This document shows positions 1 to 53,518 of a DNA stretch of 53,973 bases, in pieces. The stretch is from a virus (Duplodnaviria; Caudoviricetes). Under the pieces are notes generated by a model that was given only the letters and a program-made list of their open reading frames with translations, had not been told where the DNA came from and made no database searches. The DNA lies in the IMG/VR virus record IMGVR_UViG_3300042294_003360, positions 1 to 53,973 of that record. The stretch is one strand, 5' to 3'. Every line of letters begins with the position of its first letter. The first letter of the stretch is position 1. Position numbers and translations under genes: made by a program.

Positions 1-196
1 TATGAGTAGCAAGCATTCCAACCAAGACCCTGCTTGCTGCCCCCCGACACAGGCCCTGCATAGCAACCCATCAAGGACGCGAACGACGCGTGACCAACCC
101 CATAGCAGTGAGACAGCGAGTAGCGGCTGCCGAGTAGACCCTTCCCATAGGTCGATTTATCACCTGTGGGGCAACATAAGGGAGCTCGGTAGTGAC

Positions 197-252
197 GCGT
201 GTCCGCGACTACATTCGTCGCGCTGAAGATGGGGCAGCACCCCGAAACACGT
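197..252 (+). ncRNA. Hammerhead ribozyme, type III (HH0)
   Basis: GCGTG-TC | stem I CGCGAC/GTCGCG (204-222) | CTGAAGA (223-229) | extra T | stem II GGGG-cagca-CCCC | GAAA | CACGT. Predicted cleavage after C203 (GUC). Confidence 0.8.
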
Positions 253-264
253 AAACCGAACGAC

Positions 265-468
265 ATGAACTACGCACAGGCACTTAAAACGCTCCGCTTC
301 GCCAAAGAAATTTATGTTTATGTGGTCTACTCAAATGTCGGCACGTTCGTCAAACTTGACAAAACGGCCATCGTAAAGCAGTTCCTTGAAATGGATGAAG
401 AAGAGTTCGATGGCGTTGAATTCAATGTCCGCCTTGTGGACGATGGCACGACTGCTCTCATCGGTTGA
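265..468 (+). CDS. Small early hypothetical protein (MNYAQALK...)
   Basis: In-frame ATG at 265 of ORF 199..468, just after HH0. Confidence 0.75.
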   Translation: MNYAQALKTLRFAKEIYVYVVYSNVGTFVKLDKTAIVKQFLEMDEEEFDGVEFNVRLVDDGTTALIG

Positions 469-509
469 TGCAGATATACTGACATTACTTGGATGTCATT
501 TGACATTCT

Positions 510-548
510 ACCCTGCACTGGTTGGGCGGTTCGATTCCGCAGCAGGGT
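510..548 (+). ncRNA. Mini-tRNA-like element T1
   Basis: ACCCTGC/GCAGGGT stem, linker ACTGGTTGG, GCGG-TTCGATT-CCGC T-arm, followed by CTAAA. Confidence 0.8.
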
Positions 549-562
549 CTAAATTCATTCCC

Positions 563-733
563 ATGTACACCATCACGGAAGTGACACACTACATCACGGG
601 AGAGCGCGGATATGCCGTCATCGACGAAAACGGGATGTATGCCGATGGCGAGTTCTATTCCAGTGAGAGCGAGGCTCTTGCAGCAGCCGCTGACCTTGAG
701 TTGTATGATTCCCCCGCCCCACAGGTGAACTGA
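563..733 (+). CDS. Small acidic early hypothetical protein (MYTITEV...)
   Basis: ATG at 563. Its stop is the TGA within the CTGATGA core of HH1. Confidence 0.7.
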   Translation: MYTITEVTHYITGERGYAVIDENGMYADGEFYSSESEALAAAADLELYDSPAPQVN

Positions 734-775
734 TGAGGCTTTATGAGCCGAAACCGCCACATGGCGGTCTTCACC
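724..775 (+). ncRNA. Hammerhead ribozyme, type I (HH1)
   Basis: GGTGAA-CTGATGA-GGCT(ttatg)AGCC-GAAA-CCGCC(acat)GGCGG-TC-TTCACC. Canonical core, predicted cleavage after C769. Confidence 0.95.
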
Positions 776-788
776 AAAAAATACACGC

Positions 789-1079
789 ATGTCAAAATCA
801 GCAACCCCCTTCAAGCACAACAACGGGTTCTTTCGCTACATGGACTGCTCCACATGCCACATCCGCAAGGATGTAAGCAAATCCATCACGGACATTGAAT
901 CTCTCATCGTATATCCCCATGATTACGGATGGTGGGTCTTTGTTCCCGAGGAAATTTATGACGATGTACCCAAGTGCCTTCGTGACATCCTCTTTTACGC
1001 ACGGGGCGGCAACGCTCAGTGGGTCAAGTTGGATGTAGATGGATGGACATGGGACGCTCTGCCCAAGTATAATTGGTAG
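789..1079 (+). CDS. Early hypothetical protein
   Basis: 96-aa ORF starting 19 nt after the HH1 cleavage site. Confidence 0.8.
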   Translation: MSKSATPFKHNNGFFRYMDCSTCHIRKDVSKSITDIESLIVYPHDYGWWVFVPEEIYDDVPKCLRDILFYARGGNAQWVKLDVDGWTWDALPKYNW

Positions 1080-1093
1080 TCCACAGACCTACA

Positions 1094-1145
1094 GGTTAAC
1101 TGATGAGCGGTCAATCCGCGAAACCGCCCACGGGCGGTCTTAACC
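1094..1145 (+). ncRNA. Hammerhead ribozyme, type I (HH2)
   Basis: GGTTAA-CTGATGA-GCGG(tcaat)CCGC-GAAA-CCGCC(cacg)GGCGG-TC-TTAACC. Predicted cleavage after C1139. Confidence 0.95.
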
Positions 1146-1158
1146 AAAAAAACGCGCA

Positions 1159-1563
1159 ATGAAGTACGTAATCGTCCACACATGGAACGGAGAGGGCTAC
1201 TCTTCGGGAAACACCGCAGAGGTGATGGAGTTCTCTTCCGATGACAAGGCGCAGCAGTACATCGTCGAGCAGGCGCAGCAGGAAGCCAATGCGCTTGCTG
1301 AATTCACGGAAGAATGGGGCAATGTATCCTTCGACGATGACGAAGACCAAGGCTCGGTTCAATGGTTCGCGTTCACCACCGACACCTATGGGGTGGTCAT
1401 CCGAACCAACGTCAACGAGGCGCAACTCGTGAACGAGCAGGAGTACCACGAGCAGCTGAAGGCAGCCCTCGCGCAGGCCGACCCCGAGGAGGAGGTTGAG
1501 GATGAGAATCCGTTCATCTCCGCGTACGATGGGGAGTACGATTATCAGTTCATCAAGTTCTGA
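1159..1563 (+). CDS. Highly acidic early hypothetical protein
   Basis: 134-aa D/E-rich ORF, 19 nt after the HH2 cleavage site. Confidence 0.85.
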   Translation: MKYVIVHTWNGEGYSSGNTAEVMEFSSDDKAQQYIVEQAQQEANALAEFTEEWGNVSFDDDEDQGSVQWFAFTTDTYGVVIRTNVNEAQLVNEQEYHEQLKAALAQADPEEEVEDENPFISAYDGEYDYQFIKF

Positions 1564-1578
1564 TTCCCCCGACCCACA

Positions 1579-1628
1579 GGTTAACTGACGAGCCTTCAGT
1601 AGGCGAAACCCCTTCGGGGGTCTTAACC
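1579..1628 (+). ncRNA. Hammerhead ribozyme, type I (HH3)
   Basis: GGTTAA-CTGACGA-GCCT(tcagt)AGGC-GAAA-CCCC(ttcg)GGGG-TC-TTAACC. Predicted cleavage after C1622. Confidence 0.95.
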
Positions 1629-1642
1629 ATAAAAAACGCGCC

Positions 1643-1822
1643 ATGAGCAAACGCAAAAGCTACCTGCTGATTGCCGCCATCATCATCTTGGCGGCTCTCG
1701 CGGACAACCTGTCCGACAATCCGCAGGATCACCCAAAAGAGCCTGCGCACACCTGCACCGATACAACCCACGCCACCTGCGATGGGCAGTGCCAGTGTGA
1801 TGGAATGGAATGCACGGAGTGA
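1643..1822 (+). CDS. 59-aa protein with hydrophobic N-terminus and Cys-rich C-terminus (not in ORF track)
   Basis: MSKRKSYLLIAAIIILAALA...CTDTTHATCDGQCQCDGMECTE*, 20 nt after the HH3 cleavage site. Confidence 0.75.
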   Translation: MSKRKSYLLIAAIIILAALADNLSDNPQDHPKEPAHTCTDTTHATCDGQCQCDGMECTE

Positions 1823-1855
1823 TGGTCTTCGGTCGGTTCGACTCCGACCGCTCCG
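1815..1855 (+). ncRNA. Mini-tRNA-like element T2
   Basis: CGGAGT/GCTCCG, linker GATGGTCTTC, GGTCGG-TTCGACT-CCGACC, then CTAAA. Confidence 0.8.
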
Positions 1856-1894
1856 CTAAACTGCGCTGCACAGAATCATGCAGCACCGCGCACC

Positions 1895-2068
1895 ATGGAA
1901 CAAGTAAAAAAAGCCGCCATCACGGCACAACTAAAGAACCTCGAAGAGGCGTATGCCATCCTCGAGCAGTGGGCCACATCAGTAGGTGGTGACGAGGTAG
2001 CAAAAGAGGCCAACTCCATTTGGCAGAGGGCTATCCTCGATTTGTTGGCCGCAATGGATGGCGAATAG
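1895..2068 (+). CDS. 57-aa early hypothetical protein (MEQVKKAA...; not in ORF track)
   Basis: ATG 1895 to TAG 2068, filling the slot between T2 and T3. Confidence 0.75.
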   Translation: MEQVKKAAITAQLKNLEEAYAILEQWATSVGGDEVAKEANSIWQRAILDLLAAMDGE

Positions 2069-2077
2069 CCCCCCCCC

Positions 2078-2122
2078 AACCTGCTCCCGCAGAGGGCAGC
2101 CAGTTCGTGACTGGCGCAGGTT
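2078..2122 (+). ncRNA. Mini-tRNA-like element T3
   Basis: AACCTGC/GCAGGTT, linker with mini-stem CCC-gcaga-GGG, GCCAG-TTCGTGA-CTGGC. Preceded by a poly-C tract. Confidence 0.75.
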
Positions 2123-2133
2123 CAAAAAAAGCT

Positions 2134-2165
2134 TTTGCAGTTTTCCACAAACCATTCTACATTTG
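2134..2165 (+). promoter_or_regulatory. Bacteroidota primary-sigma promoter
   Basis: TTTG (2134-2137), 20-nt spacer, TACATTTG (2158-2165). Matches the -33/-7 consensus TTTG-N19-21-TAnnTTTG. Confidence 0.75.
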
Positions 2166-2181
2166 TCAAAAATCACCCACC

Positions 2182-2517
2182 ATGAACACCTACAAGTTCC
2201 AATTCAAGTCCAAGTCGGGCACTTGGGCAGACGTTCACACGATGAACTTCTACGCCGCGAATCTTGACGATGCCGTCAAGCAGGCCAACCTGTACAAGTC
2301 GCAGCACGACATCGTCCACATGATGTTCCTGTCCGTTAGTGATGTTCGCAGAACCATCTCGGTTGGCGAACTTATCGACCGGCTGATGCAGGTAGAGGAC
2401 AAGTCGCTCCCTGTGTTCATCTACAACGATGGCGAAAGGCACGAGTTGTGCGAGTCCGTCCCTGTGGATGACACAATCGAGGGGCAGGTCGATATCAATG
2501 TAAAGATCGAGAACTGA
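2182..2517 (+). CDS. Early hypothetical protein (MNTYKFQF...)
   Basis: In-frame ATG 2182 of ORF 2020..2517. Confidence 0.8.
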   Translation: MNTYKFQFKSKSGTWADVHTMNFYAANLDDAVKQANLYKSQHDIVHMMFLSVSDVRRTISVGELIDRLMQVEDKSLPVFIYNDGERHELCESVPVDDTIEGQVDINVKIEN

Positions 2518-2553
2518 TTGGATGCAGGCGGGGTTCGACTCCCCGCCCAGTTC
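2511..2553 (+). ncRNA. Mini-tRNA-like element T4
   Basis: GAACTG/CAGTTC, linker ATTGGATGCA, GGCGGGG-TTCGACT-CCCCGCC, then CTAAA. Confidence 0.85.
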
Positions 2554-2567
2554 CTAAACTATCCACC

Positions 2568-2834
2568 ATGAAGCGCATCAGCAAGCAAGCAAAAGCCATC
2601 GCGGACGCCCACATTGAGGCCCGCAAGTCCGGCAACTTTGACAACCCTCGCTGCACCACCCGAGATGAGGTCATAGCTGCCCTCCGCGAGGGCAAGACCA
2701 TCGAGGCCGTCCTCGATCAAGTGGAGACCAAGTTCACCTCCATCCATGCCATCATCCTGTCAAGGGTTCTCTTCCATGAGAGCCACAACTACAGGTCGGG
2801 AGTCTACAAGGGTTTCCGTATCCTGCTCGACTGA
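2568..2834 (+). CDS. Early hypothetical protein
   Basis: 88-aa ORF between T4 and T5. Confidence 0.8.
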   Translation: MKRISKQAKAIADAHIEARKSGNFDNPRCTTRDEVIAALREGKTIEAVLDQVETKFTSIHAIILSRVLFHESHNYRSGVYKGFRILLD

Positions 2835-2841
2835 TTCCCCC

Positions 2842-2885
2842 GAACTGCTATGGTATCCGATCGGGTTCGACTCCCGATGCAGTTC
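2842..2885 (+). ncRNA. Mini-tRNA-like element T5
   Basis: GAACTGC/GCAGTTC, linker TATGGTATCCG, ATCGGG-TTCGACT-CCCGAT, then CTAAA. Confidence 0.85.
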
Positions 2886-2900
2886 CTAAACTACACCACC

Positions 2901-3080
2901 ATGACACACGAAAATGTCAGCACCGCGTCCGGCCTCACCGAAGAGCAGAAGAAGGTCATCCTGTATGCCTACCTCGACCTCAAAGGTTCGATGGAATCTC
3001 CCAACGACCACGATTACGATGGTCAGAAGCAGACCATCAAGGAACTTGAGGAGATGTTCCCCTTCGTCAAGGAGGCATAG
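2901..3080 (+). CDS. Small early hypothetical protein (MTHENVST...)
   Basis: In-frame ATG 2901. Confidence 0.8.
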   Translation: MTHENVSTASGLTEEQKKVILYAYLDLKGSMESPNDHDYDGQKQTIKELEEMFPFVKEA

Positions 3081-3088
3081 TCCCCCCC

Positions 3089-3134
3089 GAACTGATAGCA
3101 TAGGGCGCAGGCGGTTCGACTCCGCCATCAGTTC
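3089..3134 (+). ncRNA. Mini-tRNA-like element T6
   Basis: GAACTGAT/ATCAGTTC, linker AGCATAGGGCGCA, GGCGG-TTCGACT-CCGCC. Confidence 0.85.
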
Positions 3135-3153
3135 CTCAACAAACCAAACACGC

Positions 3154-3549
3154 ATGAAACACATGAACGACATCGACGGCAACATCCTCCGCAAAGGAGA
3201 CTCTGTAGTAGTACTTGATACCTCCGAACTGGAAGGCGAGACGCCCATCCGAGGCATGCTCCTGCATGTGGCAGGAGGTGACCCCGAATCCAACTACATC
3301 GACTTCGGTTCGTACGGATTCTACGGCCACCGGGTTCTCAAAATAAAGGGGAATCTCTACCCCACTGACTACGTCATCTTCGATGGCACGGACGCGGTCC
3401 GTTTCAGCAACGGAGACATCATCGTCTATTCCGACATGATGGAGGCGGTTCGCGACTCCGAAGGGGTTGTAGGTTGGGGCGTCACCCCCTGCACCTCTCT
3501 CCCTGTACACCTACAGGAGGAATTGCGCAGGCAGGTGGCGCAGAACTGA
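3154..3549 (+). CDS. Early hypothetical protein (MKHMNDID...)
   Basis: In-frame ATG 3154 of ORF 2914..3549. Confidence 0.8.
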   Translation: MKHMNDIDGNILRKGDSVVVLDTSELEGETPIRGMLLHVAGGDPESNYIDFGSYGFYGHRVLKIKGNLYPTDYVIFDGTDAVRFSNGDIIVYSDMMEAVRDSEGVVGWGVTPCTSLPVHLQEELRRQVAQN

Positions 3550-3556
3550 TCCCCCC

Positions 3557-3602
3557 GAACTGGCAGGAAAGACCGAACGCAGAGCGATACTGCGGCCAGT
3601 TC
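3557..3602 (+). ncRNA. Mini-tRNA-like element T7 (variant loop)
   Basis: GAACTGGC/GCCAGTTC, linker AGGAAAGACCGAA, CGCAG-AGCGATA-CTGCG, then CTAAA. Confidence 0.7.
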
Positions 3603-3617
3603 CTAAAACCAAACACC

Positions 3618-4058
3618 ATGAAGTACACGCACAGGATTACGGCAAGCGTCCCGACCATTTATCAGTACGGCAGCATCAACAGGCTGATGGCAGCCGATGT
3701 AAAGAAATGGCCGGACGGCTCGTTCCACGCCCACATCGACTTCCTCGACTACGAGTCGGCAGAGCTTCACCTTCTCGCCCTCGCCATCAAACTGGCAGAG
3801 AACGACAAGGAGCAGGAGGCGATGGAGGAGGAGGTTCAGAGGTATGGTCAGCTGACATACGACAACTGCACCGCCAATCTCGTGGAGATCGACTACCCTT
3901 GGGCCGTCGAAATCCGCAGCAACGGCGAGGTTCTCGGAGAGTTTGAAACCTACGAGGAGGCGGCGGCCTACCTGCATGAACAGGAGCAGGATGACAGGGA
4001 CAACGACCAGTACGAGGAGGACTACTACTACCTCCGCAGGGTCGGTTGGCCGGCATGA
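3618..4058 (+). CDS. Acidic early hypothetical protein (MKYTHRIT...)
   Basis: In-frame ATG 3618 of ORF 3474..4058. Confidence 0.8.
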   Translation: MKYTHRITASVPTIYQYGSINRLMAADVKKWPDGSFHAHIDFLDYESAELHLLALAIKLAENDKEQEAMEEEVQRYGQLTYDNCTANLVEIDYPWAVEIRSNGEVLGEFETYEEAAAYLHEQEQDDRDNDQYEEDYYYLRRVGWPA

Positions 4059-4059
4059 C

Positions 4060-4100
4060 AGGGCGATGGTCGCAGGGGAGGCTCGACTCCTCCCCGCCCT
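4060..4100 (+). ncRNA. Mini-tRNA-like element T8
   Basis: AGGGC/GCCCT, linker GATGGTCGCA, GGGGAGG-CTCGACT-CCTCCCC, then TCTAAA. Confidence 0.8.
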
Positions 4101-4116
4101 TCTAAATCAACACACC

Positions 4117-4530
4117 ATGAACATGGGAATCTCAAGGGTTGAAGGCCACCCCGACGAATTGGTCTTGAAGTACAACCAGTACCTGCACACATTAGGTACT
4201 GAAAAAATGCTGGCTGCTATGGAGAGGTTCATCGTAAGTGACGCGATGCCCGAACTGATTGGGCACATACAGGACGAGGTCTTCGCAGACCTGTCAAGTA
4301 TGGTCTATGCCCTCGACGAGGGGTGGGTTCTTACCTACACAAGCACGGACACATACCGACTTGAAAAGGAGGACGGCTCGGACAGGTTCGCATCTGATGC
4401 ACAGGCAGTCGAGCACGTCTACAGGGAGGCGTTCTACGGATCGAAAATCCACAAGGAGGCGGTAGCATTCATGGCTGCCCATGCGACACCCGATGAGATT
4501 AAATTCATCGCGCGGTGCGCAAGCGTCTGA
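4117..4530 (+). CDS. Early hypothetical protein (MNMGISRV...)
   Basis: In-frame ATG 4117 of ORF 3943..4530. Confidence 0.8.
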   Translation: MNMGISRVEGHPDELVLKYNQYLHTLGTEKMLAAMERFIVSDAMPELIGHIQDEVFADLSSMVYALDEGWVLTYTSTDTYRLEKEDGSDRFASDAQAVEHVYREAFYGSKIHKEAVAFMAAHATPDEIKFIARCASV

Positions 4531-4573
4531 CAGGGCGATGGTCGCAGGAGGGGTTCGTCTCCCCTCCGCCCTG
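4531..4573 (+). ncRNA. Mini-tRNA-like element T9
   Basis: CAGGGC/GCCCTG, linker GATGGTCGCA, GGAGGGG-TTCGTCT-CCCCTCC, then CTAAA. Confidence 0.8.
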
Positions 4574-4610
4574 CTAAACTGAGTCCGGCAGCATCCGGAC
4601 ATCAACAACC

Positions 4611-4814
4611 ATGACAAACAGAGACAAAGACCTGCTCGAGGTGCTGTACCTCTTCCTCGAGCAGAACGAGGCCAAGCTCCGCGAGGAGTACGAAGAGGTT
4701 CGGGAGGGTCTTGAGGCCATGAACCACCCGATGACCTACCCGCAGTTCTGCGTGACCATGTTTACCGGATTCATGGAGGACAAACAGGTCAACATCACCT
4801 CACAATTAAACTGA
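4611..4814 (+). CDS. Small early hypothetical protein
   Basis: 67-aa ORF after T9. Confidence 0.8.
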   Translation: MTNRDKDLLEVLYLFLEQNEAKLREEYEEVREGLEAMNHPMTYPQFCVTMFTGFMEDKQVNITSQLN

Positions 4815-4815
4815 C

Positions 4816-4905
4816 ATGTACGCAGCAACCATCGCACTCATCATCATCGCAGCAGCCGCAGCAGCCAAGGGTCTCAACGGCCCGGAGGACATCACCAAAT
4901 ACTGA
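4816..4905 (+). CDS. 29-aa hydrophobic peptide (MYAATIALIIIAAAAAAKG...)
   Basis: ATG 1 nt after the previous stop, ends just before a terminator hairpin. Confidence 0.5.
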   Translation: MYAATIALIIIAAAAAAKGLNGPEDITKY

Positions 4906-4911
4906 ACACAA

Positions 4912-4947
4912 CCCCCGAGGGTTACACTTCGGGGGCGTTCATTTTTT
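4912..4947 (+). terminator. Intrinsic terminator closing the early cassette array
   Basis: CCCCCGAGG-gttaca-CTTCGGGGG hairpin, then TTTTTT after a short gap. Confidence 0.6.
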
Positions 4948-4959
4948 AAAAAAGAAAAC

Positions 4960-5157
4960 ATGCAAGACTTAACATTCGAGCAGTGGCTCGTTCACATCAG
5001 ACGCGAATTAGGTTACCAACCCGAAATGATCAAAAGGTATGAAGCAGCAATCGGAACTACGCAAGGTATTCAGAGCGGTACACAACGCCCTGCAAGAACT
5101 GGAAGGAATGACTCCAAGCAAAAGAAAAAAGACCATCCTGTCGCTGATGGAGATTAA
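4960..5157 (+). CDS. Hypothetical protein
   Basis: ATG after an A-rich leader. Overlaps the next ORF. Confidence 0.55.
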   Translation: MQDLTFEQWLVHIRRELGYQPEMIKRYEAAIGTTQGIQSGTQRPARTGRNDSKQKKKDHPVADGD

Positions 5158-5239
5158 CATGGACTTGGAAGAAAAGATTATCGAACATCTAAACAAATCC
5201 AATGAGAGAGTATCAGAAGATTCGCCAGTACATTCTTGA
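5039..5239 (+). CDS. Hypothetical protein
   Basis: 66-aa helical-looking ORF. Confidence 0.6.
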   Translation: MKQQSELRKVFRAVHNALQELEGMTPSKRKKTILSLMEINMDLEEKIIEHLNKSNERVSEDSPVHS

Positions 5240-5546
5240 GAAGTACCTCATCGACATCAACGACAGGTGCAGGGCTTTGCCTCGAGCCTATCTGAAGGCC
5301 ATCGCAAGCAATGTCCTCAACAAGATGTACGACTTTAACCACGCACAGATATCAGCATGGCTCGGCATCCACCGAACCACCATCTACCACTACCTCGAGC
5401 ATCACGATGGGAAGTACCAGTGCCATCCCGGCTATGGAGAGATGTTCGATGACGTGTGGGGATACATGATGGGGCAGCCGGACATCGTGGTCAATCTAAA
5501 CGAGATAAAGCAAATCCTATGCGATACATTCGGGACGGAAGAGTAA
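5202..5546 (+). CDS. HTH DNA-binding protein resembling the DnaA C-terminal domain
   Basis: AQISAWLGIHRTTIYHY resembles the DnaA domain IV HTH (EIG..FGGRDHTTV.HA). Confidence 0.6.
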   Translation: MREYQKIRQYILEKYLIDINDRCRALPRAYLKAIASNVLNKMYDFNHAQISAWLGIHRTTIYHYLEHHDGKYQCHPGYGEMFDDVWGYMMGQPDIVVNLNEIKQILCDTFGTEE

Positions 5547-6634
5547 TCGTCGTGAAGGACGGAATGACGCACGACACAGGCATCCGCGCGTATCACCACA
5601 GGTTCGGCAGCAGGGGGTGTTTCCTTGGCGAATTCTCCTACACCCAATGGGCGAACACGGCCATCGACAAGTTCTCCAATGGAGAACCGATAGGCGAATG
5701 GAAGGACGATTCAATCGGTGGGTACTGCGAGAGGTACGTGCATCAAATGCACACAGGGGAGATTCGTTCCAACAGGGGGACGCCCTACTCGGCCAACTCC
5801 ATCAAGACCTACTCCAACGCAGCCTCCTGCCTATACAGGTACGGCAAAGGAATCCGACTGGACTCCGACAGGAAAGCCTACAGGGAATTCTTCAAGTCAT
5901 TCGAGCATTGGCTCGAGCGTTCGATGAATGCCAAGAGTAGGTTCGAGATCGTGAACGCCATCCGCATCATGGTTCGTTACTGGTGCAGGGAGTTAGACCT
6001 GCCCATCCCGGAGACACACCGCATGGCCAAGACCGAGAAGCCCATCGTGGTCGTTCCCCCCGAACTGATATCCAAGGTGGTCAGCGATGACAGGTTCATG
6101 GGCACTCTCATCCAACCCCATTGGGAGGTGGCGGTGACCATCCTTCTGACCACGCTTCGCCTTTCGGACATCCAGTCGCTGCGACCCGAGCATCTCGAGG
6201 GTGGGTTCATCGTGAAGGACACACAAAAGACCGGGCAGAGGGTGACCATCCCGATCCCCGAGAGGCTGCGTGAAATCTTCAGCCGAAACCTAAAGAACGG
6301 GAGCCTGTGGTCGGGCCCGATCGACAACATCCATGGCGGTCTGAAGTTGGTTTTCCAAAAGTATCCCGAGATGTGGGAGATGCACACCGCAGGGGTTACC
6401 CAGTACCTGTGGGAATTCGTCACCCCCCACATGCTGCGAAAGTCAGCCATCACAGGTCTGATTTTTTTCGGGGTGGATCACATCAGTGTCCGCCATGCCT
6501 CCGGCCACAGCCAAAACTCTTCCGCATTTTGGAAGTACGTCAAGGTCGTGGACTCAAGGTTCAAGTCAGCCATCTCGGACGGGCATGCTGCGATGTTGAA
6601 AACTATTTCCACAACCAGTTCGCAACCTTCCTAA
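5519..6634 (+). CDS. Tyrosine recombinase/integrase family protein
   Basis: Catalytic set: TTLRLSD (R), QKTG (K), HMLRKS (HxxR), SGHS (H), WKYV (Y). Start uncertain. Confidence 0.85.
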   Translation: MRYIRDGRVIVVKDGMTHDTGIRAYHHRFGSRGCFLGEFSYTQWANTAIDKFSNGEPIGEWKDDSIGGYCERYVHQMHTGEIRSNRGTPYSANSIKTYSNAASCLYRYGKGIRLDSDRKAYREFFKSFEHWLERSMNAKSRFEIVNAIRIMVRYWCRELDLPIPETHRMAKTEKPIVVVPPELISKVVSDDRFMGTLIQPHWEVAVTILLTTLRLSDIQSLRPEHLEGGFIVKDTQKTGQRVTIPIPERLREIFSRNLKNGSLWSGPIDNIHGGLKLVFQKYPEMWEMHTAGVTQYLWEFVTPHMLRKSAITGLIFFGVDHISVRHASGHSQNSSAFWKYVKVVDSRFKSAISDGHAAMLKTISTTSSQPS

Positions 6635-6639
6635 CTTTG
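6632..6639 (+). promoter_or_regulatory. Bacteroidota -7 promoter box
   Basis: TAACTTTG, 4 nt before ATG 6644. Confidence 0.55.
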
Positions 6640-6643
6640 GAAC

Positions 6644-6868
6644 ATGGAATTCAATTACAACGAGGATACCATGAAGGTAGGTCGGGTTACCTACGACCTC
6701 AAGGAATACCGAAGGTGGCTTTTGAACGAGCACCCTGCCCTGTGTCAGAACCACTTCATCAAGGCGATTCGGAAGCAGGGGAAAACCGTTTTCACCTACG
6801 ACTGGATGAGCATCTACTCGACCGCAAGAGAATATCGTTTACACATACAATTCATCAATCAACTATGA
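6644..6868 (+). CDS. Hypothetical protein
   Basis: 74-aa ORF coupled by ATGA overlap to the ERF gene. Confidence 0.75.
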   Translation: MEFNYNEDTMKVGRVTYDLKEYRRWLLNEHPALCQNHFIKAIRKQGKTVFTYDWMSIYSTAREYRLHIQFINQL

Positions 6869-7428
6869 GTTTACTCAAATCACTGGCTCAGTTTCAGAAG
6901 AGCGTCAAGCCTATCGTCCGCAGCGCGGCGAATCCGTTTTTCAAAAGCAAGTACGCACCTTTGTCTGACATTCAGAAGCACATCAAGCCCGACCTCGAGT
7001 CCGCAGGGCTGGTCATCACACAAGCCTGTGAGTTCAACGACAACGGCCTGTTCGTGGTGACCAAGGTCATCCACGTCGAGTCGGGGGAGTCGCTTCAGTC
7101 GGTGTTCCCGGTCGTGACCAAGGGGCAGACATCGCAGGACTACGGAAGCGCGGTGTCTTACGCCAAGAGGTATTCCCTCACCGGCCTGCTGAACTTGATC
7201 GTGTCCGACGAGGACGATGACGGAAACCGGGCGGCAGCCACCTCCGAAAAGCCTGTCCTCGGGGACGAGCAGCTGGCAGGGATGTTTGACTTTATCAGCA
7301 AGGGCAAGAGCCGCGAGGTGCTGACCGCCCTCAACAGGTACGAGGTGACCGAGCAGCAGCGCAAGTCCATCAACGATGCCATCAACAACTTCAAAGCCGA
7401 GTCAACCAAAAAAGCGGCAAGCAAATGA
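6865..7428 (+). CDS. erf: ERF-family ssDNA annealing protein
   Basis: NPFFKSKYAPL and GSAVSYAKRYSLTGLLNL...DDDG motifs. ATG 6865. Confidence 0.9.
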   Translation: MSLLKSLAQFQKSVKPIVRSAANPFFKSKYAPLSDIQKHIKPDLESAGLVITQACEFNDNGLFVVTKVIHVESGESLQSVFPVVTKGQTSQDYGSAVSYAKRYSLTGLLNLIVSDEDDDGNRAAATSEKPVLGDEQLAGMFDFISKGKSREVLTALNRYEVTEQQRKSINDAINNFKAESTKKAASK

Positions 7429-8417
7429 AACTGACACGCATACCGACAAGAAACCTGTCTGAACAGGAGTGGCAGGAAGTCCGCAAGGAATTAACCACAA
7501 GAGGAATGGTCGGGGGCAGCGATGCCTCCACCCTCCTCGGGTTGAACCAGTACAAGTCCCCCATCAACATGTTCTACCAAGCGGTGGGACTGGTGGACCA
7601 GCCGAACAAGATGAACTCGGCAATGCTCCACGGAAAGCAGCTCGAGGACTACGTTGCCAAGTGTTGGCAGTACTGGGATGGGACTGAAGAGGGATGGGTG
7701 AACAACACCAACACCGGTAACAAAATCAAGAAGTACCGGAAGGTAAAGGCGATCATCATCAACCCGAAGTTCCCGTCCCTGTTCGCAAACATCGACGGCA
7801 GGATAGTCCAACACCCGGACCGAACCGACCCCGGCATCCTCGAGGTCAAAACCATGTCCGGATATTCCGCCGACATGTGGGAGGCAGGAATCCCTCCGGG
7901 ATACTACGCACAGATTCAGCACTACATGCTCGTGACCGGACTGAAGTGGGGTGAACTGGTGTACTTGAAGGACGGAAGGGAACTGGGAGTGGTGAAGTTC
8001 GAGGAGGATAAGGACATGCAGAACAGAATCCTTGATGCGGCCAACGAGTTCAAGGAGAGGGTCGAGATGGCATACGCTGCCATCAAGGACGCCCGATCCC
8101 CCGAGGAGGCGATGCAACTGGCCTCCAACTATGAGCCCCCGGCGGACAACACGGACGCGTTCAGCAAGTTCATCTCCGAAAAGCACAAGGCCCGGCAGGA
8201 CGAGGTTCACATACACGGAGGCATCGAACTGGCCAAGTGGATGGACGAGTACCGCGAAGCGTCCGAGACGATCAAGGAGCAGGAGTTACGCAAGACTCTC
8301 GCGTCGAACACCCTGCGTCAGCACATGGAGAAGGAGGGGGCAACAGCGATGACCCTGCCGAACGGAAAGATTACATGGCGTCAAAAATTCACGGTGAAGT
8401 ATGAACAAGTTGCGTGA
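7425..8417 (+). CDS. YqaJ-like viral recombinase exonuclease
   Basis: GGSDAS.LLG.N.YKSP, ANIDG, LEVKT and YYAQIQHYM motifs. Confidence 0.9.
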   Translation: MKLTRIPTRNLSEQEWQEVRKELTTRGMVGGSDASTLLGLNQYKSPINMFYQAVGLVDQPNKMNSAMLHGKQLEDYVAKCWQYWDGTEEGWVNNTNTGNKIKKYRKVKAIIINPKFPSLFANIDGRIVQHPDRTDPGILEVKTMSGYSADMWEAGIPPGYYAQIQHYMLVTGLKWGELVYLKDGRELGVVKFEEDKDMQNRILDAANEFKERVEMAYAAIKDARSPEEAMQLASNYEPPADNTDAFSKFISEKHKARQDEVHIHGGIELAKWMDEYREASETIKEQELRKTLASNTLRQHMEKEGATAMTLPNGKITWRQKFTVKYEQVA

Positions 8418-12481: not shown

Positions 12482-12572
12482 TGCGGGGTGGCAGAATGGC
12501 AAATGCAGGCTCATGGCATTAGTCTGGACACAAGAAGCCCAGTCCACGCAGGTTCGATTCCTGCCCCCGCAG
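12482..12572 (+). tRNA. Atypical tRNA-like RNA (long variable arm, degenerate anticodon arm, nominal GGC)
   Basis: TGCGGGG/CCCCGCA acceptor, D arm GCA-gaatggcaaa-TGC, T arm GCAGG-TTCGATT-CCTGC. Confidence 0.7.
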
Positions 12573-12625
12573 CAGTTTGTTTCATGGTGTATTTTTCCCG
12601 GGGCGTTTCTACGCCCGGGGTTTAT

Positions 12626-12721
12626 CGGAGGGTGGCGGAATGGAAGACGCGCCGAAAGGTAGGTACGGTATGAATCCCGATTAAACAATCCTTATTGCAG
12701 GTTCGATTCCTGCCCCTCCGG
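12626..12721 (+). tRNA. Atypical tRNA-like RNA without a canonical anticodon arm
   Basis: CGGAGGG/CCCTCCG acceptor, D arm GCG-gaatggaaga-CGC, T arm GCAGG-TTCGATT-CCTGC. Irregular middle. Confidence 0.7.
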
Positions 12722-12780
12722 CAACAGCAGTTGGTTTTACCGGCCCGTTTCCACGGGCTGGATTTCTAAAAGACTAAGCA

Positions 12781-12885
12781 TCCCGGTTGGCGTAAGCCCC
12801 AATGAATAAGGCTCAAGGTAACGCCCCAACAGGAATCCCCTCCTTAATAGGTTGGGAGATGCGGGTTCGAGTCCCGCACCGGGAG
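12781..12885 (+). tRNA. Atypical tRNA-like RNA with expanded D and anticodon loops
   Basis: TCCCGGT/ACCGGGA acceptor, GCGT/ACGC D stem with inserted hairpin, CCAAC/GTTGG stem with 20-nt loop, T arm GCGGG-TTCGAGT-CCCGC. Confidence 0.7.
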
Positions 12886-12898
12886 CAAAAAAACAAAC

Positions 12899-17183: not shown

Positions 17184-20100
17184 TTACCTGTTCTCCTGCA
17201 TCCACTGCTTCAGACTCTCAGTCAGAGACTTAGACAGATCCACCAGTTCTCTCTTGGACTGCTCCAGCGCCATCGGGTCTGTGATATCCATTGCCTTGTC
17301 GACCTCTGCGTTGAACGACTTGTAGATCTTTGTCCCGGTGAGCTTGTTGTCCTTTGCGAACTTCCTGAACTCCAGTATGGCCGGCTCGTCAAGGCCAAGT
17401 GCAGCCTCCTTGGCTTCCTTGTCTTTCTTGTCCTTGATGTATTGCTCCAGTTCCTGCTTGACCCGGGGCGCCTCGTCGATCAGATCCCTTCCGTAGCGGG
17501 CACGTTCTGCCTTGTCCTCGATGGTGAAGTAGAACTCCACCTTGTCGTTGAATGTCTTGAACGGCTTGGAGTTTGCTACTCCCTTGCCCTTGGCAAACTT
17601 GAACAGATCCTGCAGTGACTTGGAACTGTAGGCCGAGAACTCCTTGGCAAAACCGGTATCGTTCAGACCGAACTTTGTCCTTGCGTCTATCTCTCCCAAG
17701 TTGGAAGCCTTGATCGCCAAGTTTCCGAAGTAAGAAAACTGACCCTTGATAAAGAAGTCAACCATCCTAGGGTCGGTCTCTTTGAATACAGACACAGCGC
17801 CGGATATGAACTTTCCCAAGTTGGACGCCGTAGTTGTTCCCTTTCTCTCCTCGATGTCGAGCTGGTATTCGTACGGAGATATGATGTTCTTCTCCCGGAA
17901 GAAGTCGTAGTTCGCCTGAACCTCGATGATCTTCTGGTACGGACCGGCAAGGTCTGACTCCTCGAACATGAACATGCTCTTGGCTATCGTACCCCCGAAC
18001 CCATCGAATGCCTTCTCTCTCCCGTTCACGTAGCTGAGTGCCCTGTCTATGGAGGCGGCTATCACACCTAGTTCGAACGGCTTTGGTATGGACATCCAAA
18101 CATCTCCAACCTTGAAGTTGTAGAACATGTCCCTCTGGTAGTCCAGAAGATCCTCGTATTCTTTCTCGTCATCCTCGTCAGAGTGGTTCAGATACCACAG
18201 AGCGACCTGAGGAAGTACGGTAAACAGTGCGGTCCTAGCCACGAACGATCCCGGCGATTCTGTCACCCTTTTGTACGCAGACCTCAGACCCTGCACCGCT
18301 GCGTTTGAGAACGGAACAAGCTGGTTGATCCACTTCATGTGCCTTCCTGCCACGGCAAAGTCTATCAGACTCCTAGCCTTTGAAGAGGCAAGAACCGTAG
18401 CACTTACCGGGTCCATCCCTTCCTTGATCGCCTTGTCGTATGCGTTCTTGTACTCGGCTATCCTGTTGGCGTTCTCACTCCTGTACAGGAAGTTTTGGTA
18501 CTTCGTCCAAATCTTTGGCAGGTACTCCTTCGTGGTGACTATCGTTCCGGCTTTGCTTATCTTCTGCTCTGCATCCTTGAGAAGGGAGTAGTACATCTCC
18601 TTGCTCTTGAAGTACATGCCTGAGTTAAGGGCCCCCGATCTGGCAGCCTTGTCGTGTTCATCCTTGCTGTAGACCAGTGCCCTGACCTGATCAAATAGGT
18701 TACCCTCGTTGGATATGATTATCCTGTGCTGCGTGTCCCTCACTATGTTCCTCATGGCGAACACAGGGAAGTTGGTAACCGTCCACCGAAGCATCCGGGG
18801 AAGTGCAGTAAGAAGCGGAGGCAAGTTGTACGATGCCTCGCCTATCCCCTTGATGGCATTAGCCACGTCTGTATGGAACTTCCAATACTCCGGCTTGCCA
18901 TTGACAAACACGGTAACCACGTCTTTACCCGGACCGGACACAAGGTATCCTATGTCTGACATTCTGTTGGGCTGACCCTGACCCATCATCCTAGGGTCGA
19001 CAAGCAAGTTCCTGAAGTTCAAAAGAACCTCATTCCTGTCGGCCTCCCTGTAACCCCTGTACACGTTGTCGAACATAGACACATACGGATTCTGTATGGT
19101 CTTGGTAGACCCCTGTATGGCCATCAGAACCTCATCCTTTGATCCAAGGTTCTTAGGCGATCCGAACTTCGACTCTATGATCTGACCCGGCTCAGTCTCC
19201 TGTATGCGGTTCATGGCCACATAGTGCAGGTTGTTCTGCTTGATGAACAGGTACCCCCCGATCAGATTGCCATCGGCGTCGTACTCATCGTAGGCCAGCC
19301 TGCCCTTGTCGACCATGTAACGGAGCACGGCGTCAGACATCTCCCTGTACCTCCTGACAGCCTCAACAAGCTTGTCGTAGTCTGCCCTTAACCGAATCTG
19401 ATTGATCGCCTCCTCGGCAGTCTCGAAGTCAGTAAAGATCCCACCTCCGATACCGCTAAGTATGTCGGCCCTTTTGAATCTGAAACCAAGCTCGACAGTC
19501 CTCTCTGCCACCATCAAGGCAACCATGGCGTTCATCCTATCCTTCAGCACCTCTCCGTCCATGGCAACCACCCTCCCATTGGAATTGTAGTCTGCAATCG
19601 GATCCAACAGCCAAGACACGTTCATCACATTGCCACTGTCCAGTACCCTCTCGAAGGTGCTGTCGATGAGACCGTTCTCCATCATGTCTCCGAACTTGGC
19701 ATCGAATCCGCCGAGCAGCCTAAGGAGTATCTCGGGATCGTTCTTTGGGACGATGGTGTCCATCCCACGTATGCCCATCAAGTGCTTGATGGCGTTGTCG
19801 AATATGTAGAACTCATCCAAGAACGCCGTGCCCAGCCTGTCCCAGTAGCTGATTGAGAAGTTTCCGGACTTCTTCTTCTTGAACATCTGTGCCAGTGTGC
19901 CCGGCAATTTCTCCGGATCCATCTGCACGTTGGACATAATCCTGTCAATTCCAGACATGCCGGCCCAGCCCCTTATGTCGTCAGAAAATGCCTTCAGATT
20001 TTCCCTTGTGGCGTCCGGAACGACTTGGTTGAATATCCTAGCAATGTTCGGAGCGGCAACAACCGTTGCGTCTGGGTTCACCAAGTACGCCCTCATAAAC

Positions 20101-23100
20101 TCAGCAAAGCCCTCCCCCCTTATGTAGGCCGCAGGATCAGGGTGGTTAGCCGGAGGCTTGCTGCCAAACACAGCGAACTGGTTCAGCTCGGCAACCGCAG
20201 CCTGATCGGCCTCTATTTCGGCCATCACGGAGAACTCGTCGTCTATTGAGTGACCTATCTCGTGCGCCGTGGTAGGCAGGTCGTTGTTGAAACTTATCCT
20301 TACTAGCTTCAGTGACGGGTTGTATGATCCGAGGGCCCTCTTTGATTTTCCGTAGGAAATCTTCTGATTCAGGCCCTTGGACAGATCGAACACTATGTCC
20401 TTCAGCATCTTCCTCTTTGCGCCGGGAACCGGAGCCACCGGTATGTTTCTAGGCGAAAACCGGGAACCGGAGCCACCCATGAAGCTCTCGTTGGTTATCG
20501 ATCCGCCCCACACGTCCGGGTCTGTGGCAAACAGTCTGGCAGCGATCGGCTCCATGCCAAGCCTGTCCATGAGATCCTTCTCGATCTCCTCTTGGGTCAT
20601 CCCCTTCTGCTTCTGCCCCTTCACGTAGTCGGTGACTCTGGACTTCTCCTGAGAGACTGACATCTGTATCCTAGGGTCGGTAGTTGAGAAGGCACCGACG
20701 TTTTCTGTGGCGGACTTGATTTGTGTGGGGGATTTGACCATATAAACTATCCCCGCATCACGGCTTATCCTACCTTTCATGGCCCATGTATCGCCATCTC
20801 CTATTCGTCTGCCTTGAGGCCCGCCAACAGTCATGTCAGACATGGATTCAGCCTTCAAGAAAACCGGAATCACATTTCTTCCATAGGTTGATGCCTCATC
20901 TTGACTTGTGGTAAAATAGAAACCCCTACCCCACCTACGATCCTTTTGTTTTTTTGTATCAAATGCGTCTATCGTTTCATCGGTTCCATGGTACACCACC
21001 ATGGGCTCTCCGTTCTCATCAACTATTTTACTTGCATTCATCGGGTCGGCCTCCCAGTCACCGAACCAATTCTTGAATTCGGAAGTGCGGACAGTTGCCC
21101 ACTGTGATTCTGTTAGGTTGGTGGGCTTGCCGTTGGGGGCCTTCATGTATGTGCCGGCAGCCTTGGAATCGGATATGATTCTGTCAAGGTTTCTGTTTCC
21201 GACTGATGCTTGGGTTCCCCCGATTGCTGACTCCACTTGACTGACAAACTCTGGGTTAGAACCGTCAGCCTTGGCCTTTAGATAAGCATCGGCGATTGAC
21301 TCATCAACCGAATTTCCTATCAGTTCATATGCATCCGCCAAGGTTGAAAGTTCTTGTCGCTCAAAATCCTCAACTCCTTTCCTTACCAGTGCCGCAAGTA
21401 TCTGCCTGTCCACCTCAGGCATCTCCATCGGGCTGTCATACCCGAGTCGGTTCAGACCTTCGTCATTGAAGAAGTTCCAAACCTCCATCTTACTGTTGAA
21501 TTCCTTCTGAAAGATTTCATTCTCACTCTCCTCTAAACCATTACCATCCTCATACTTGTCTTGGTTTCTCTTTTTGATTATTTCTTCAGGTGTCGACAGC
21601 CTAAGTTCAAGACCATTGTCTTCTCCAACCTTCTTCAAATCTTCCCACGAATCATAACTATCCCCCATCGCATCTTGGTAGGTTCCATCCGGCATCCTAA
21701 AGAACATCCAACCATCACCAGCTGTAACGGCAGAAGGCTCGGACATTTTTTTGAGCTCCTGTTTCTTCACGGGATCCACCCTTGACAATGACCGAACAAC
21801 CAAGCCTCTGTTCCCAGCAGAGAACTGAACCCGCGCTCCTGCCGCATCGAACAATCCCTTGACGGAGTAGGCTTGGTCTGTCCATTTCCCGTATACAGGG
21901 TTCTTCGCATACACCAATCCCCCGACCTGAATCACCTCTTCAGCCGACACTATCGGTCTTCCCATGTCGGTGTTCCTGTCGTAGAAGTAGGAATGTCGGA
22001 ACGGGTTCATACCGACCTGAACGTATGCAGGATCATCCACGATATCCTGAACTATCTTCTTGGCATTCTCAGCCTGTTCAGTCATGCTGGCACCGGGGAT
22101 GTTCTTCCATTTGCCGTATATCCTATTGATTGGAGCCTTCGCTGTTCCTGCTGCAATGGCAAGTGAAGCCTTCGGTTCTACACCGAACCTGACATCCGTT
22201 ATCCTTGCCACGTTCCTGTATGATATGGACTTTCCAGCTTTGGTGTCACCCTCATGTACGGACACAACCCAAGTGTTGTTGTTCTTGTACGCCGGTATGT
22301 CCAACCTCAAGCCTACCATCGTGCCGTCATCTATGGGACTGTTTGCCTTGAGTGCTTGATTCTTATCGAGCGCCCTGCTCACTTCATCCTCCGTTGCAGG
22401 CTCAAAGAATCTTGTGATGGGTGTAATTGGGCTGTTAGCGGATACCGTTGCACGATACTCATCGTTGGTTATCTTGCCGGTCGACAGGTCTTGTGCTGCC
22501 TTTGTCACTATGGGTGACCTTGCAGATATAGACGGGTCGCCCTTCCCTTCCGGGGACTTCTCCCAGTTTATCTGGCCAACAAGATTGCGCCCGCCGACTG
22601 ACATCTGTATCCTAGGATCTGTGGTGGAAAATGCGCCGATGTTTTCTGTGGCGGATTTGATTTGGGTGGGGTTGAATGCGACTATTTCAAATCCGGAAAT
22701 GTTATTGCTTCCTTCGAACATTATCCCGTCATATCCAAGTTCTCTCCAAGCCTTATTTACCAAGTCTATATTTTCCTCTTCTTCAGTTCGGTAATCCAAA
22801 TAAGAAATATTATTATCGCTATCCCAACTACCTCTATTTTTGCTTTCAATCTCCCATGCTTTGGTCTTTTCAACATCTTCAGATATACTAGATATGTTGC
22901 TATCTGTAATAGGTTTTTTTATGTTTAGAAAAACCTCATACATCTTCTCACCAAACTCTTTAGTGTCTTCTACATTGCTTGCAAAGTATATTCCCTCTCC
23001 CCAACCCTCTGCCTTTGAAGACATAAACGTGTCGAAACTATTACTAGAACCATGATAAACCACCATCGGCTCTCCATTCTCATCCACCACCTTACTCGCA

Positions 23101-28160: not shown

Positions 28161-28170
28161 TTTGTATTGT

Positions 28171-53510: not shown

Positions 53511-53518
53511 CAAAAATA
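53511..53518 (-). promoter_or_regulatory. Bacteroidota -7 promoter box for the scaffold/capsid operon
   Basis: TATTTTTG on the minus strand, 17 nt before ATG 53493. Confidence 0.55.

Follow-up and report, generated by a model that had tools for sequence, protein, structure and literature searches.

Why would a tailed phage set a self-cleaving ribozyme before one small gene after another, each time with the predicted cut only 19 or 20 nucleotides (nt) ahead of the start codon? The question is raised by the IMG/VR virus record IMGVR_UViG_3300042294_003360, which is analysed here as a whole (the window: 53,973 nt, linear, with a completeness of 80% as estimated by CheckV). At its far left, within a series of small + strand genes of unknown function, lie three type I hammerheads, called HH1, HH2 and HH3 below. 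The answer favoured here, with a probability of roughly 60%, is that they would serve as self-cleaving punctuation of a polycistronic early transcript and would fix a short leader without a Shine-Dalgarno (SD) motif. That the three are genuine hammerheads is held with high confidence.

The type I topology is found in every copy: stem I is open, and stems II and III are closed by loops. In HH1, stem I pairs 724-729 with 770-775, and CUGAUGA (730-736), the stem II hairpin (737-749) and GAAA (750-753) follow its 5′ strand; stem III pairs 754-758 with 763-767 and leads into U768 and C769. The hammerhead core was defined as C3 U4 G5 A6 N7 G8 A9, G12 A13 A14, an A15.1-U16.1 pair and a nucleotide other than G at position 17. 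CUGA(U/C)GA, GAAA and U-C are present in the correct order and spacing in all three copies, and the C found in place of U in HH3 falls at position 7, which is free. Each copy has three helices, of 6 base pairs (bp) in stem I, 4-5 bp in stem II and 4-5 bp in stem III, and stems II and III vary between the copies with compensatory changes that keep the pairing. ACAGGT precedes each hammerhead, and the leaders start with UU(C/A)ACCA, are A-rich and carry ACGC shortly before the ATG, with no SD motif. The first-pass annotation, made from the DNA letters alone, had described the three cuts, the start codons with leaders of 19, 19 and 20 nt (Table 1), the form of the leaders, the shared ACAGGT and the compensatory pairing, all of which can be read directly in the sequence. 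Its statement that the upstream product would end in a hairpin, namely stem III, is supported by the type I topology.

A strict pattern for the motif gives three forward matches in the 53,973-nt record, none in reverse and none in a backwards-read control. A covariance model, R1, was derived from 46 copies of the type I hammerhead in other viral contigs; the window was left out, and the source scan had kept stem I free. With filters off, it scores HH1 at 67.7 bits (E 5e-18), HH3 at 65.2 bits (E 3.1e-17) and HH2 at 61.9 bits (E 3.1e-16), compared with 13.5 bits (E 0.21) for the next-best match in the window, and the core columns are invariant in its alignment. Chance as the origin of the motifs is rejected by this gap in score, and the earlier assignment to real type I hammerheads is sustained by the intact core together with an independent model. 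In RNAfold predictions on 70-nt pieces, HH1 (z -3.2) and HH2 (z -2.3) adopt the three-way junction as their minimum-energy fold, HH2 in longer context as well; in HH3 only the centroid has this shape, and the fold is not better than shuffles (z -1.32). The leader is predicted to be unpaired in all three 70-nt folds and also in longer context, in line with the earlier description of an unstructured leader.

The three copies are part of something larger. A scan of viral contigs with the core and the window's stem I 3′ strand (GUCUUMACC), referred to as the stem-I-selected sample, returned at least 133 stretches, giving 147 distinct ribozymes including the window's three; counts from this and the next scan are among the matches listed, here and below. 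Stem II has 4 bp in 127 of the 147 and stem III 4-11 bp in 143, with 109 distinct stem II sequences and 115 distinct stem III sequences. The base directly 5′ of stem I is A in 146/147 and the base directly 3′ is A in 144/146, neither of which is fixed by the pattern. A second, stem-I-free scan of viral contigs gave at least 135 matches. In 81 of them both stem II and stem III have at least 3 bp, and within these 81 an open stem I of at least 4 bp is present in 74. There, stem I usually has 6 bp and is variable in sequence, and unpaired A residues flank it in 38/46 and 30/46. GGUUAA/UUAACC in stem I was considered as a sequence-specific signal and rejected, since stem I covaries when left free and the exact sequence occurs in only 6 of the 74 (7 with a near-variant). 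Loop II of the class follows a U-N-A-(A/G)-U-like pattern in both samples; HH2 and HH3 fit it and HH1 departs from it. The flanking bases and loop II were looked at with regard to a putative tertiary contact of stem I with loop II, which would allow fast cleavage at physiological Mg2+. In an alignment of 46 sequences, 13 of 16 pairs change on both sides; paired cells reach 97.8%, against 61% in shuffles and 32-36% in slid controls, a percentage that follows from the selection of rows pre-filtered for pairing, so that only the diversity of pair types is informative. The subclass is defined here by a 6-bp stem I, a 4-bp stem II and a start codon shortly after the cut. Scored at 62-68 bits by R1 and followed by a start codon within 18-28 nt of the cut (19, 19 and 20 nt), HH1-3 are, on sequence grounds, members of a large phage class in which the short cut-to-start placement recurs.

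This placement was quantified in both samples. Among the stem-I-selected ribozymes, 121 of 141 have an ATG-initiated open reading frame (ORF) of at least 30 codons starting 18-28 nt after the cut, compared with 208 of 2820 random positions in the same loci, and in the stem-I-free set a start codon (ATG, GTG or TTG) lies 18-40 nt after the cut in 49 of 71, compared with 276 of 1420. The distances have a sharp lower edge, with only 6 of 147 stem-I-selected ribozymes below 18 nt. Chance as the source of the spacing is rejected by the first comparison, and what had been described for three sites proves to be a class-wide feature. The absence of SD motifs, which the first-pass annotation had also proposed, is confirmed in the window, where an SD word at -20 to -4 is found in only 4 of 50 genes, against 12% of random 17-mers. 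It does not extend to the class, in which many stem-I-free members carry a GGAG-type SD between cut and start, downstream of the ribozyme. Judging from these motifs, being SD-less is a trait of this host and not of the class.

Furthermore, the upstream gene frequently ends within the ribozyme. An upstream open frame of at least 40 codons is present in 134 class members, and in 80 of these its stop codon falls within the ribozyme: 44 at +3 (the UAA of stem I), 25 at +7 (the core UGA), 10 at +17 and 1 at +35. In the other 54 the stop lies 2-57 nt ahead of the ribozyme. The first-pass annotation had pointed out that the core TGA of HH1 doubles as a stop codon; TGA 731-733, the stop of ORF 563-733, is U4-G5-A6 of the core, and the same coincidence is found in the hammerhead of a related viral contig (L264) as well as in the 25 class members mentioned above. 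The ORFs upstream of HH2 and HH3 end 15-16 nt before stem I (stops 1077-1079 and 1561-1563). A ribosome terminating at the core UGA would cover stem I and the core, and could affect folding, in keeping with the suggestion of the first-pass annotation.

In the mechanism proposed here, each ribozyme would fold during transcription and cut itself after C769, C1139 or C1622. The ribozyme body would stay on the upstream RNA, ending in the stem III hairpin with a 2′,3′-cyclic phosphate; the A/U-rich stem I of 6 bp would melt after the cut, and release of the products is likely. The downstream cistron would be freed with a 5′-OH and an A-rich, unpaired leader of 19-20 nt without SD, which keeps the six bases of the stem I 3′ strand. 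In this way neighbouring small genes would be separated into their own RNAs, the leader length would be set and the starts would be insulated from upstream context, comparable to the synthetic RiboJ insulator. If translation gains, this would be owed to a free 5′ end close by and to the loss of upstream structure and ribosomes; unmasking would play no part. In this lineage, hammerheads would be only one of several exchangeable punctuation modules, beside a type III hammerhead and tRNA-like minihelices, and it is because of this exchange that cutting between genes is regarded as the shared function. We infer the cleavage, the end chemistry, the release of products and the effects on translation and RNA stability, the end chemistry from established hammerhead chemistry, in which cleavage leaves a 2′,3′-cyclic phosphate upstream and a 5′-OH downstream (PMC8782182).

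A protective 5′-OH end, proposed earlier as the benefit of cleavage, is unlikely to be the main purpose. In Escherichia coli, 5′-OH ends escape the RNase E activity that is stimulated by a 5′-monophosphate, while in Bacillus subtilis RNase J1 acts on the 5′-OH product that the glmS ribozyme yields. Because these two cases differ, 5′-OH protection is host-dependent. The idea is weakened because tRNA-type processing leaves a 5′-phosphate and a type III ribozyme leaves a structured 5′ end: the same lineage uses tRNA-like elements (which would give a 5′-phosphate if processed by host tRNA enzymes) or a type III hammerhead at such junctions, and two more distant homologues of the gene behind HH3 follow no element.

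The setting of the three ribozymes is that of an early region of a tailed double-stranded DNA phage, as judged from PHROG matches. On the + strand, 5.4-16.3 kb encodes an integrase-like protein, an Erf-like annealing protein, a RecE-like exonuclease, a primase/helicase, a DNA methyltransferase and a deoxynucleoside monophosphate kinase, and virion and tail-fibre proteins are coded on the - strand. When 13 small ORFs were compared with PHROGs and Pfam, only the DUF5983 domain of ORF 789-1079 and one PHROG of unknown function (ORF 4117-4530) were found. A search for related loci with the 134-amino-acid protein of ORF 1159-1563 gave no homologous locus, and Megablast of window 1-8000 against a phage collection gave no match. 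In the structural block, two very long - strand ORFs are observed, at 17184-28205 (3673 amino acids) and 38500-43812 (1770 amino acids). A 92-nt tRNA-Ala (GGC) is called by ARAGORN at 12482-12573, and T-arm-like repeats at 12697-12723 and 12861-12887, which lie 149 and 164 nt downstream, are not called as tRNAs.

Table 1. Positions of the ribozymes, leaders, genes and other elements discussed in the text (window numbering, unless another locus is named)
Feature	Position	Strand	Details
HH1, type I hammerhead	724-775	+	Predicted cut between C769 and U770; R1 match 722-777
HH2, type I hammerhead	1094-1145	+	Layout as HH1; predicted cut between C1139 and U1140; R1 match 1092-1147
HH3, type I hammerhead	1579-1628	+	Core CUGACGA; predicted cut between C1622 and U1623; R1 match 1577-1630
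Leader of HH1	770-788	+	19 nt; ATG 789
Leader of HH2	1140-1158	+	19 nt; ATG 1159
Leader of HH3	1623-1642	+	20 nt; ATG 1643
Type I hammerhead in L264	2813-2866		Leader 19 nt (from coordinates)
Probable type III hammerhead	197-252	+	GUC 201-203, predicted cut after C203, 61 nt before ATG 265
tRNA-like minihelix	510-548	+	By script; 7-bp acceptor-like stem, 9-nt linker, T-arm with UUCGAUU loop; ATG 563, 14 nt on
tRNA-like minihelix	1815-1855	+	By script
Variant tRNA-like minihelix	2078-2128	+	By eye
tRNA-like minihelix	2516-2552	+	By script; acceptor-like stem by eye better drawn 2510-2554
tRNA-like minihelix	2842-2885	+	By script
tRNA-like minihelix	3089-3134	+	By script
Variant tRNA-like minihelix	3555-3600	+	By eye
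tRNA-like minihelix	4060-4100	+	By script
tRNA-like minihelix	4531-4573	+	By script
Stop codon and C-rich tract	706-722
Stop codon and C-rich tract	1561-1577
Stop codon and C-rich tract	2066-2078
Stop codon and C-rich tract	2832-2842
Stop codon and C-rich tract	3078-3089
Stop codon and C-rich tract	3547-3555
ORF	563-733	+	Upstream of HH1; stop TGA 731-733
ORF	789-1079	+	96 amino acids; DUF5983 C-terminal domain, Pfam PF19419, 58.7 bits (cut-off 27)
ORF	1159-1563	+	134 amino acids; no known family
ORF	1643-1822	+	59 amino acids; hydrophobic N-terminus, cysteine-rich C-terminus
Sigma-70-like promoter match	1044-1073	+	TGGACA, 18-nt spacer, TATAAT; 11/12; just upstream of HH2
Bacteroidota-type promoter-like motif	2133-2165	+	TTTG, then TAnnTTTG at 2158; ahead of ATG 2182
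Intrinsic-terminator-like hairpin	4912-4945

Transcription of the region can be outlined from promoter-like motifs. TAnnTTTG, the -7 promoter element of Bacteroidota, occurs only once on the + strand within 1-6000, at 2158. As no copy is found on the + strand in 1-2157, HH1-3 would lie within one transcription unit; the motif at 2158 and a terminator-like hairpin further downstream (Table 1) would split the region into two such units. An overall excess of TAnnTTTG in the window is rejected, with 24 matches on both strands and about 26 expected by our own arithmetic, and it is only where the motifs stand that tells something: 7 of the 24 are found no more than 40 nt upstream of a predicted start and on the strand of the gene, where by the same arithmetic less than one is expected. 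These sites, 4-27 nt ahead of predicted starts, are at 53518, 50226, 46010, 45658 and 43824 on the - strand and at 2158 and 6632 on the + strand. Their positions suggest that several genes of the window have promoters of the Bacteroidota type and leaders that are very short or missing. Bacteroidetes mRNAs are reported to lack SD motifs, and both the structure of the mRNA and the nucleotides upstream are said to tune initiation (PMC6847099). It is plausible from these motifs that the host is Bacteroidota-like and probably does not use SD pairing. A scan of genome contigs for the GGUUAA-type hammerhead gave only four stretches, on metagenome-assembled contigs of four different phyla, from which no host was derived.

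The relatives of this phage point to exchange of modules at homologous places. Four viral contigs code for a RecE-like protein 59-62% identical to that of the window and have the same tRNA-like elements; L264 and L265 additionally carry a type I hammerhead. The small, cysteine-rich protein of ORF 1643-1822, which lies behind HH3, has homologues in five other loci; for those in L264 and L267 the alignment begins at M1. A variant tRNA-like element precedes the homologous gene in L264 and L265, two contigs near-identical in this region, and a type III hammerhead with an extra U precedes it in L267. As a separate observation on these relatives, the non-coding stretch at window 1-170 is about 80% identical to L264 2306-2490, though identity is no higher than 59% for the RecE-like protein. 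The stretch may represent a conserved non-coding RNA or a control region upstream of the early operon; Rfam gave no match on this left-end stretch of about 170 nt.

Other RNA elements occupy the neighbouring junctions of the window. In a count by eye over 197-4960, one is present at 13 of the 14 gene junctions: three type I hammerheads, one probable type III hammerhead and nine tRNA-like minihelices; the sole junction without an element is the 2-nt gap at 4815-4816. In the probable type III copy, stem I is a hairpin at 204-222, followed by CUGAAGA (223-229), an extra U (U230) between A9 and stem II, stem II (231-243) and GAAA (244-247), and stem III pairs 248-252 with 197-201. Its predicted fold is no better than shuffles (z -0.74), and Rfam at E<=10 over 100-400 gave no match to it. 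The extra-U variant is found in at least 119 viral-contig stretches. Among the matches listed, 28 of 118 distinct extra-U matches (which include the copies of the window and of L267) parse as type III, 26 of them from viral contigs, and many others are type I by eye. In the two type III candidates, at window 197-252 and L267 1243-1294, a start codon lies 6-12 nt past the end of stem III.

In the minihelices, 6-8 bp form an acceptor-like stem, and a linker of about 7-14 nt, in which AUGGU is frequent, leads to a T-arm whose loop is UUCGANU in most; they have neither a D nor an anticodon arm and are followed by a short A/C-rich leader. The ATG lies 14-19 nt past the element in five of the seven minihelices found by script and 37-39 nt past it in two. 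None of the nine is called a tRNA by ARAGORN, nor by Rfam. Such minihelices are also seen in L264, L267 and L272-L349, and with those of the window included, a start codon stands 14-40 nt further on. In 78 viral-contig stretches there is a related motif whose linker is AUGGUCGCAG; among 71 distinct copies with this linker, the acceptor stem has at least 6 bp in 60 and the T stem 6-7 bp in 60, and many stand ahead of an SD and ATG. Host RNase P or RNase Z may act on the minihelices. In addition, a stop codon and then a C-rich tract (e.g., UGAUUCCCCCG) are observed ahead of both hammerheads and tRNA-like elements; at HH1 this sequence is read as coding, since the ORF continues to the core UGA.

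These junctions invite a wider and more tentative proposal, that of a phage operon punctuated throughout. Almost all junctions between the small early genes would hold an exchangeable RNA-cutting module, be it a type I hammerhead, an extra-U type III hammerhead or a minihelix cut by RNase P or RNase Z, and each gene would obtain its own RNA with an SD-less leader of 13-20 nt. On the layout of the junctions this is possible, at clearly less than even odds. If true, it would be a phage counterpart of mitochondrial tRNA punctuation; start codons would be selected near a free 5′ end in hosts whose ribosomes ignore SD motifs, and cutting would be coupled to translation through upstream ORFs that end within the ribozyme.

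Several observations weigh against HH1-3 as punctuation that fixes a leader. More distant homologues of gene 1643 in L472 and L473 have no element at all and start 4 nt past the previous stop. Because of these two, the module ahead of this gene family is, as far as the loci compared here tell, not only exchangeable but dispensable. An R1 hammerhead is present in only 3 of 77 loci centred on tRNA-like elements, and a tRNA-like element, as called by script, in only 3 of 133 hammerhead-centred loci among the matches listed, with none on the opposite strand; outside the lineage of the window, the two kinds of element thus appear to be rarely close together. A sigma-70-like promoter match stands just ahead of HH2, and the region holds 3 matches of this kind where shuffles give a mean of 3.5, for which reason it is rejected as an argument against a polycistronic transcript. 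Type III copies at equivalent junctions would leave a structured 5′ end, and on this layout a naked 5′-OH leader is not the aim every time. Finally, the leader is predicted to be single-stranded before cleavage, and exposure of the start codon needs no cut. The earlier idea that cleavage standardises the leader is plausible and backed by the class-wide position data, without any unmasking by the cut. In a rival reading, the hammerheads do cut and the spacing of 19-20 nt has no function of its own: it could reflect tight gene packing and a minimum length for ribosome landing, as the shortest arrangement before the landing site, and the purpose would lie elsewhere, for example, in a protected upstream 3′ end or in differing decay rates. 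Phage gaps are short everywhere, the upstream ORF runs into the ribozyme in the 80 of 134 cases mentioned above, the distance in SD-using hosts stretches to 25-40 nt and tracks the SD motif, the ribozyme is retained on the downstream RNA in type III copies, and the leader is predicted to be unpaired with or without cleavage. The sharp lower edge of the distances speaks against it, as does the fact that the tRNA-like elements of the lineage mostly end 14-20 nt before the ATG, which points to a shared constraint on leader length; minimal packing would give the same. On balance, this reading is unlikely, with a chance that is not small.

Rather improbable is the view that the modules act at the DNA level or as selfish passengers, in which cassettes of about 50 nt promote recombination and gene shuffling and cleavage is neutral or secondary. 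It would account for a type I hammerhead, a type III hammerhead, a tRNA-like element or none at a homologous gene junction, for the shared 5′ flank of stop codon and C-rich tract before hammerheads and tRNA-like elements, and for flanked genes that are small, fast-evolving and mostly of unknown function. However, stems I, II and III vary freely with pairing kept, a sign that RNA structure is under selection, and recombination would find little identical DNA there; the catalytic core does not vary, and strand and position relative to start codons are fixed, with no reverse matches in the window. Least credible of all is that the sites are chance look-alikes or decayed ribozymes that do not cut. 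Rfam gave no match over the whole window at gathering score, and at E<=10 over 400-2300 only a mis-registered Hammerhead_3 on HH1 (17.6 bits, against a threshold of 48.5) and none for HH2 or HH3. Once about 35 extra upstream bases are included, competing pairings that involve the C-rich tract take over in the predicted minimum-energy folds of HH1 and HH3, and the HH3 fold does not exceed shuffles even in the 70-nt piece; the loop II of HH1, as noted, is off the class consensus. Yet all core positions are intact in HH1-3, and the copies differ in a compensatory manner and share strand and place relative to genes. Because R1, derived from other phage copies, scores them at 62-68 bits against 13.5 bits for the next match, the Rfam miss is read as a gap in the models for a short-stemmed phage subclass; the Rfam hammerhead clan CL00010 is an operational classifier and not a definition of the class.

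If HH1-3 are taken as self-cleaving punctuation, what do they add? Phage hammerheads have been known since 2011, and HH1-3 are new only as members and through the positional regularities. What appear to be new here are the quantitative cut-to-start rule, the frequent upstream stop inside the ribozyme and the exchange with a tRNA-like element at one junction; among open-licence PMC papers and bioRxiv, no paper with a cut-to-start rule for phage hammerheads or with tRNA-like punctuation of phage operons was found. These regularities, a fixed short distance from cut to start, an upstream gene ending in the ribozyme and replacement of the module, make the purpose of the hammerheads experimentally testable. 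The copies could also serve as natural, compact insulator parts for hosts that do not use SD pairing, and they indicate that current Rfam models miss a common phage subclass.

The arrangement has likenesses among known systems. In mitochondrial tRNA punctuation, structured elements between genes mark the cut sites of polycistronic RNA, and RNase P and RNase Z cut the tRNAs or t-elements. Similarly, as in mitochondria and with the t-elements of plant mitochondria (PMC1920247), tRNA-like minihelices alternate with hammerheads in the window. Unlike in organelles, three or four junctions here use self-cleaving RNA, and cleavage of the minihelices by the host is putative. RiboJ, an insulator reportedly introduced by Lou et al. 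in 2012, is a hammerhead in the 5′ untranslated region that cuts off variable upstream RNA and yields a constant short 5′-OH leader downstream. It is an engineered plant-satellite hammerhead with an added hairpin and stays on the downstream RNA, whereas HH1-3 are natural and lie between cistrons, and their ribozyme would stay upstream and leave a bare leader. Ribozyme insulators of this kind are treated in synthetic biology (Clifton et al., 2018; PMC6206723).

Closer in kind are the hammerheads of prophages, where clustered copies flank single genes or short blocks (Perreault et al., 2011; PMC3088659). Three triple arrangements cleave during in vitro transcription of fragments of about 2 kb, processing of a long phage transcript into gene-length mRNAs was proposed, and one variant in an archaeal virus (halovirus) lies 13 nt before a start codon (PMC3088659). 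HH1-3 resemble these prophage and phage hammerheads in the canonical core, the intergenic location on the gene strand and the several copies flanking genes. They differ in that the available text of that paper gives no general cut-to-start rule, upstream-stop overlap or tRNA-like exchange, and in that the Rfam models of that lineage miss the copies of the window; its supplementary alignments may already contain the subclass with a 6-bp stem I. The purpose of phage hammerheads was still described as open in a 2019 review (PMC6765202), and their roles likewise in a 2026 paper (PMC13725137). In the latter, fungal RNA viruses are shown to carry type I hammerheads in their 5′ and intergenic untranslated regions, and a link to translation initiation is drawn; viral 5′ ends at the cut were confirmed by rapid amplification of cDNA ends, and one cut lies 7 nt before the next start. 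Those ribozymes are like HH1-3 in being of type I, in having a stable helix III and in filling a small intergenic region (PMC13725137). The fungal case, however, concerns RNA viruses and ribosomes of eukaryotes, while here the virus is a DNA phage, its host is bacterial and the leader, at 19-20 nt, is longer.

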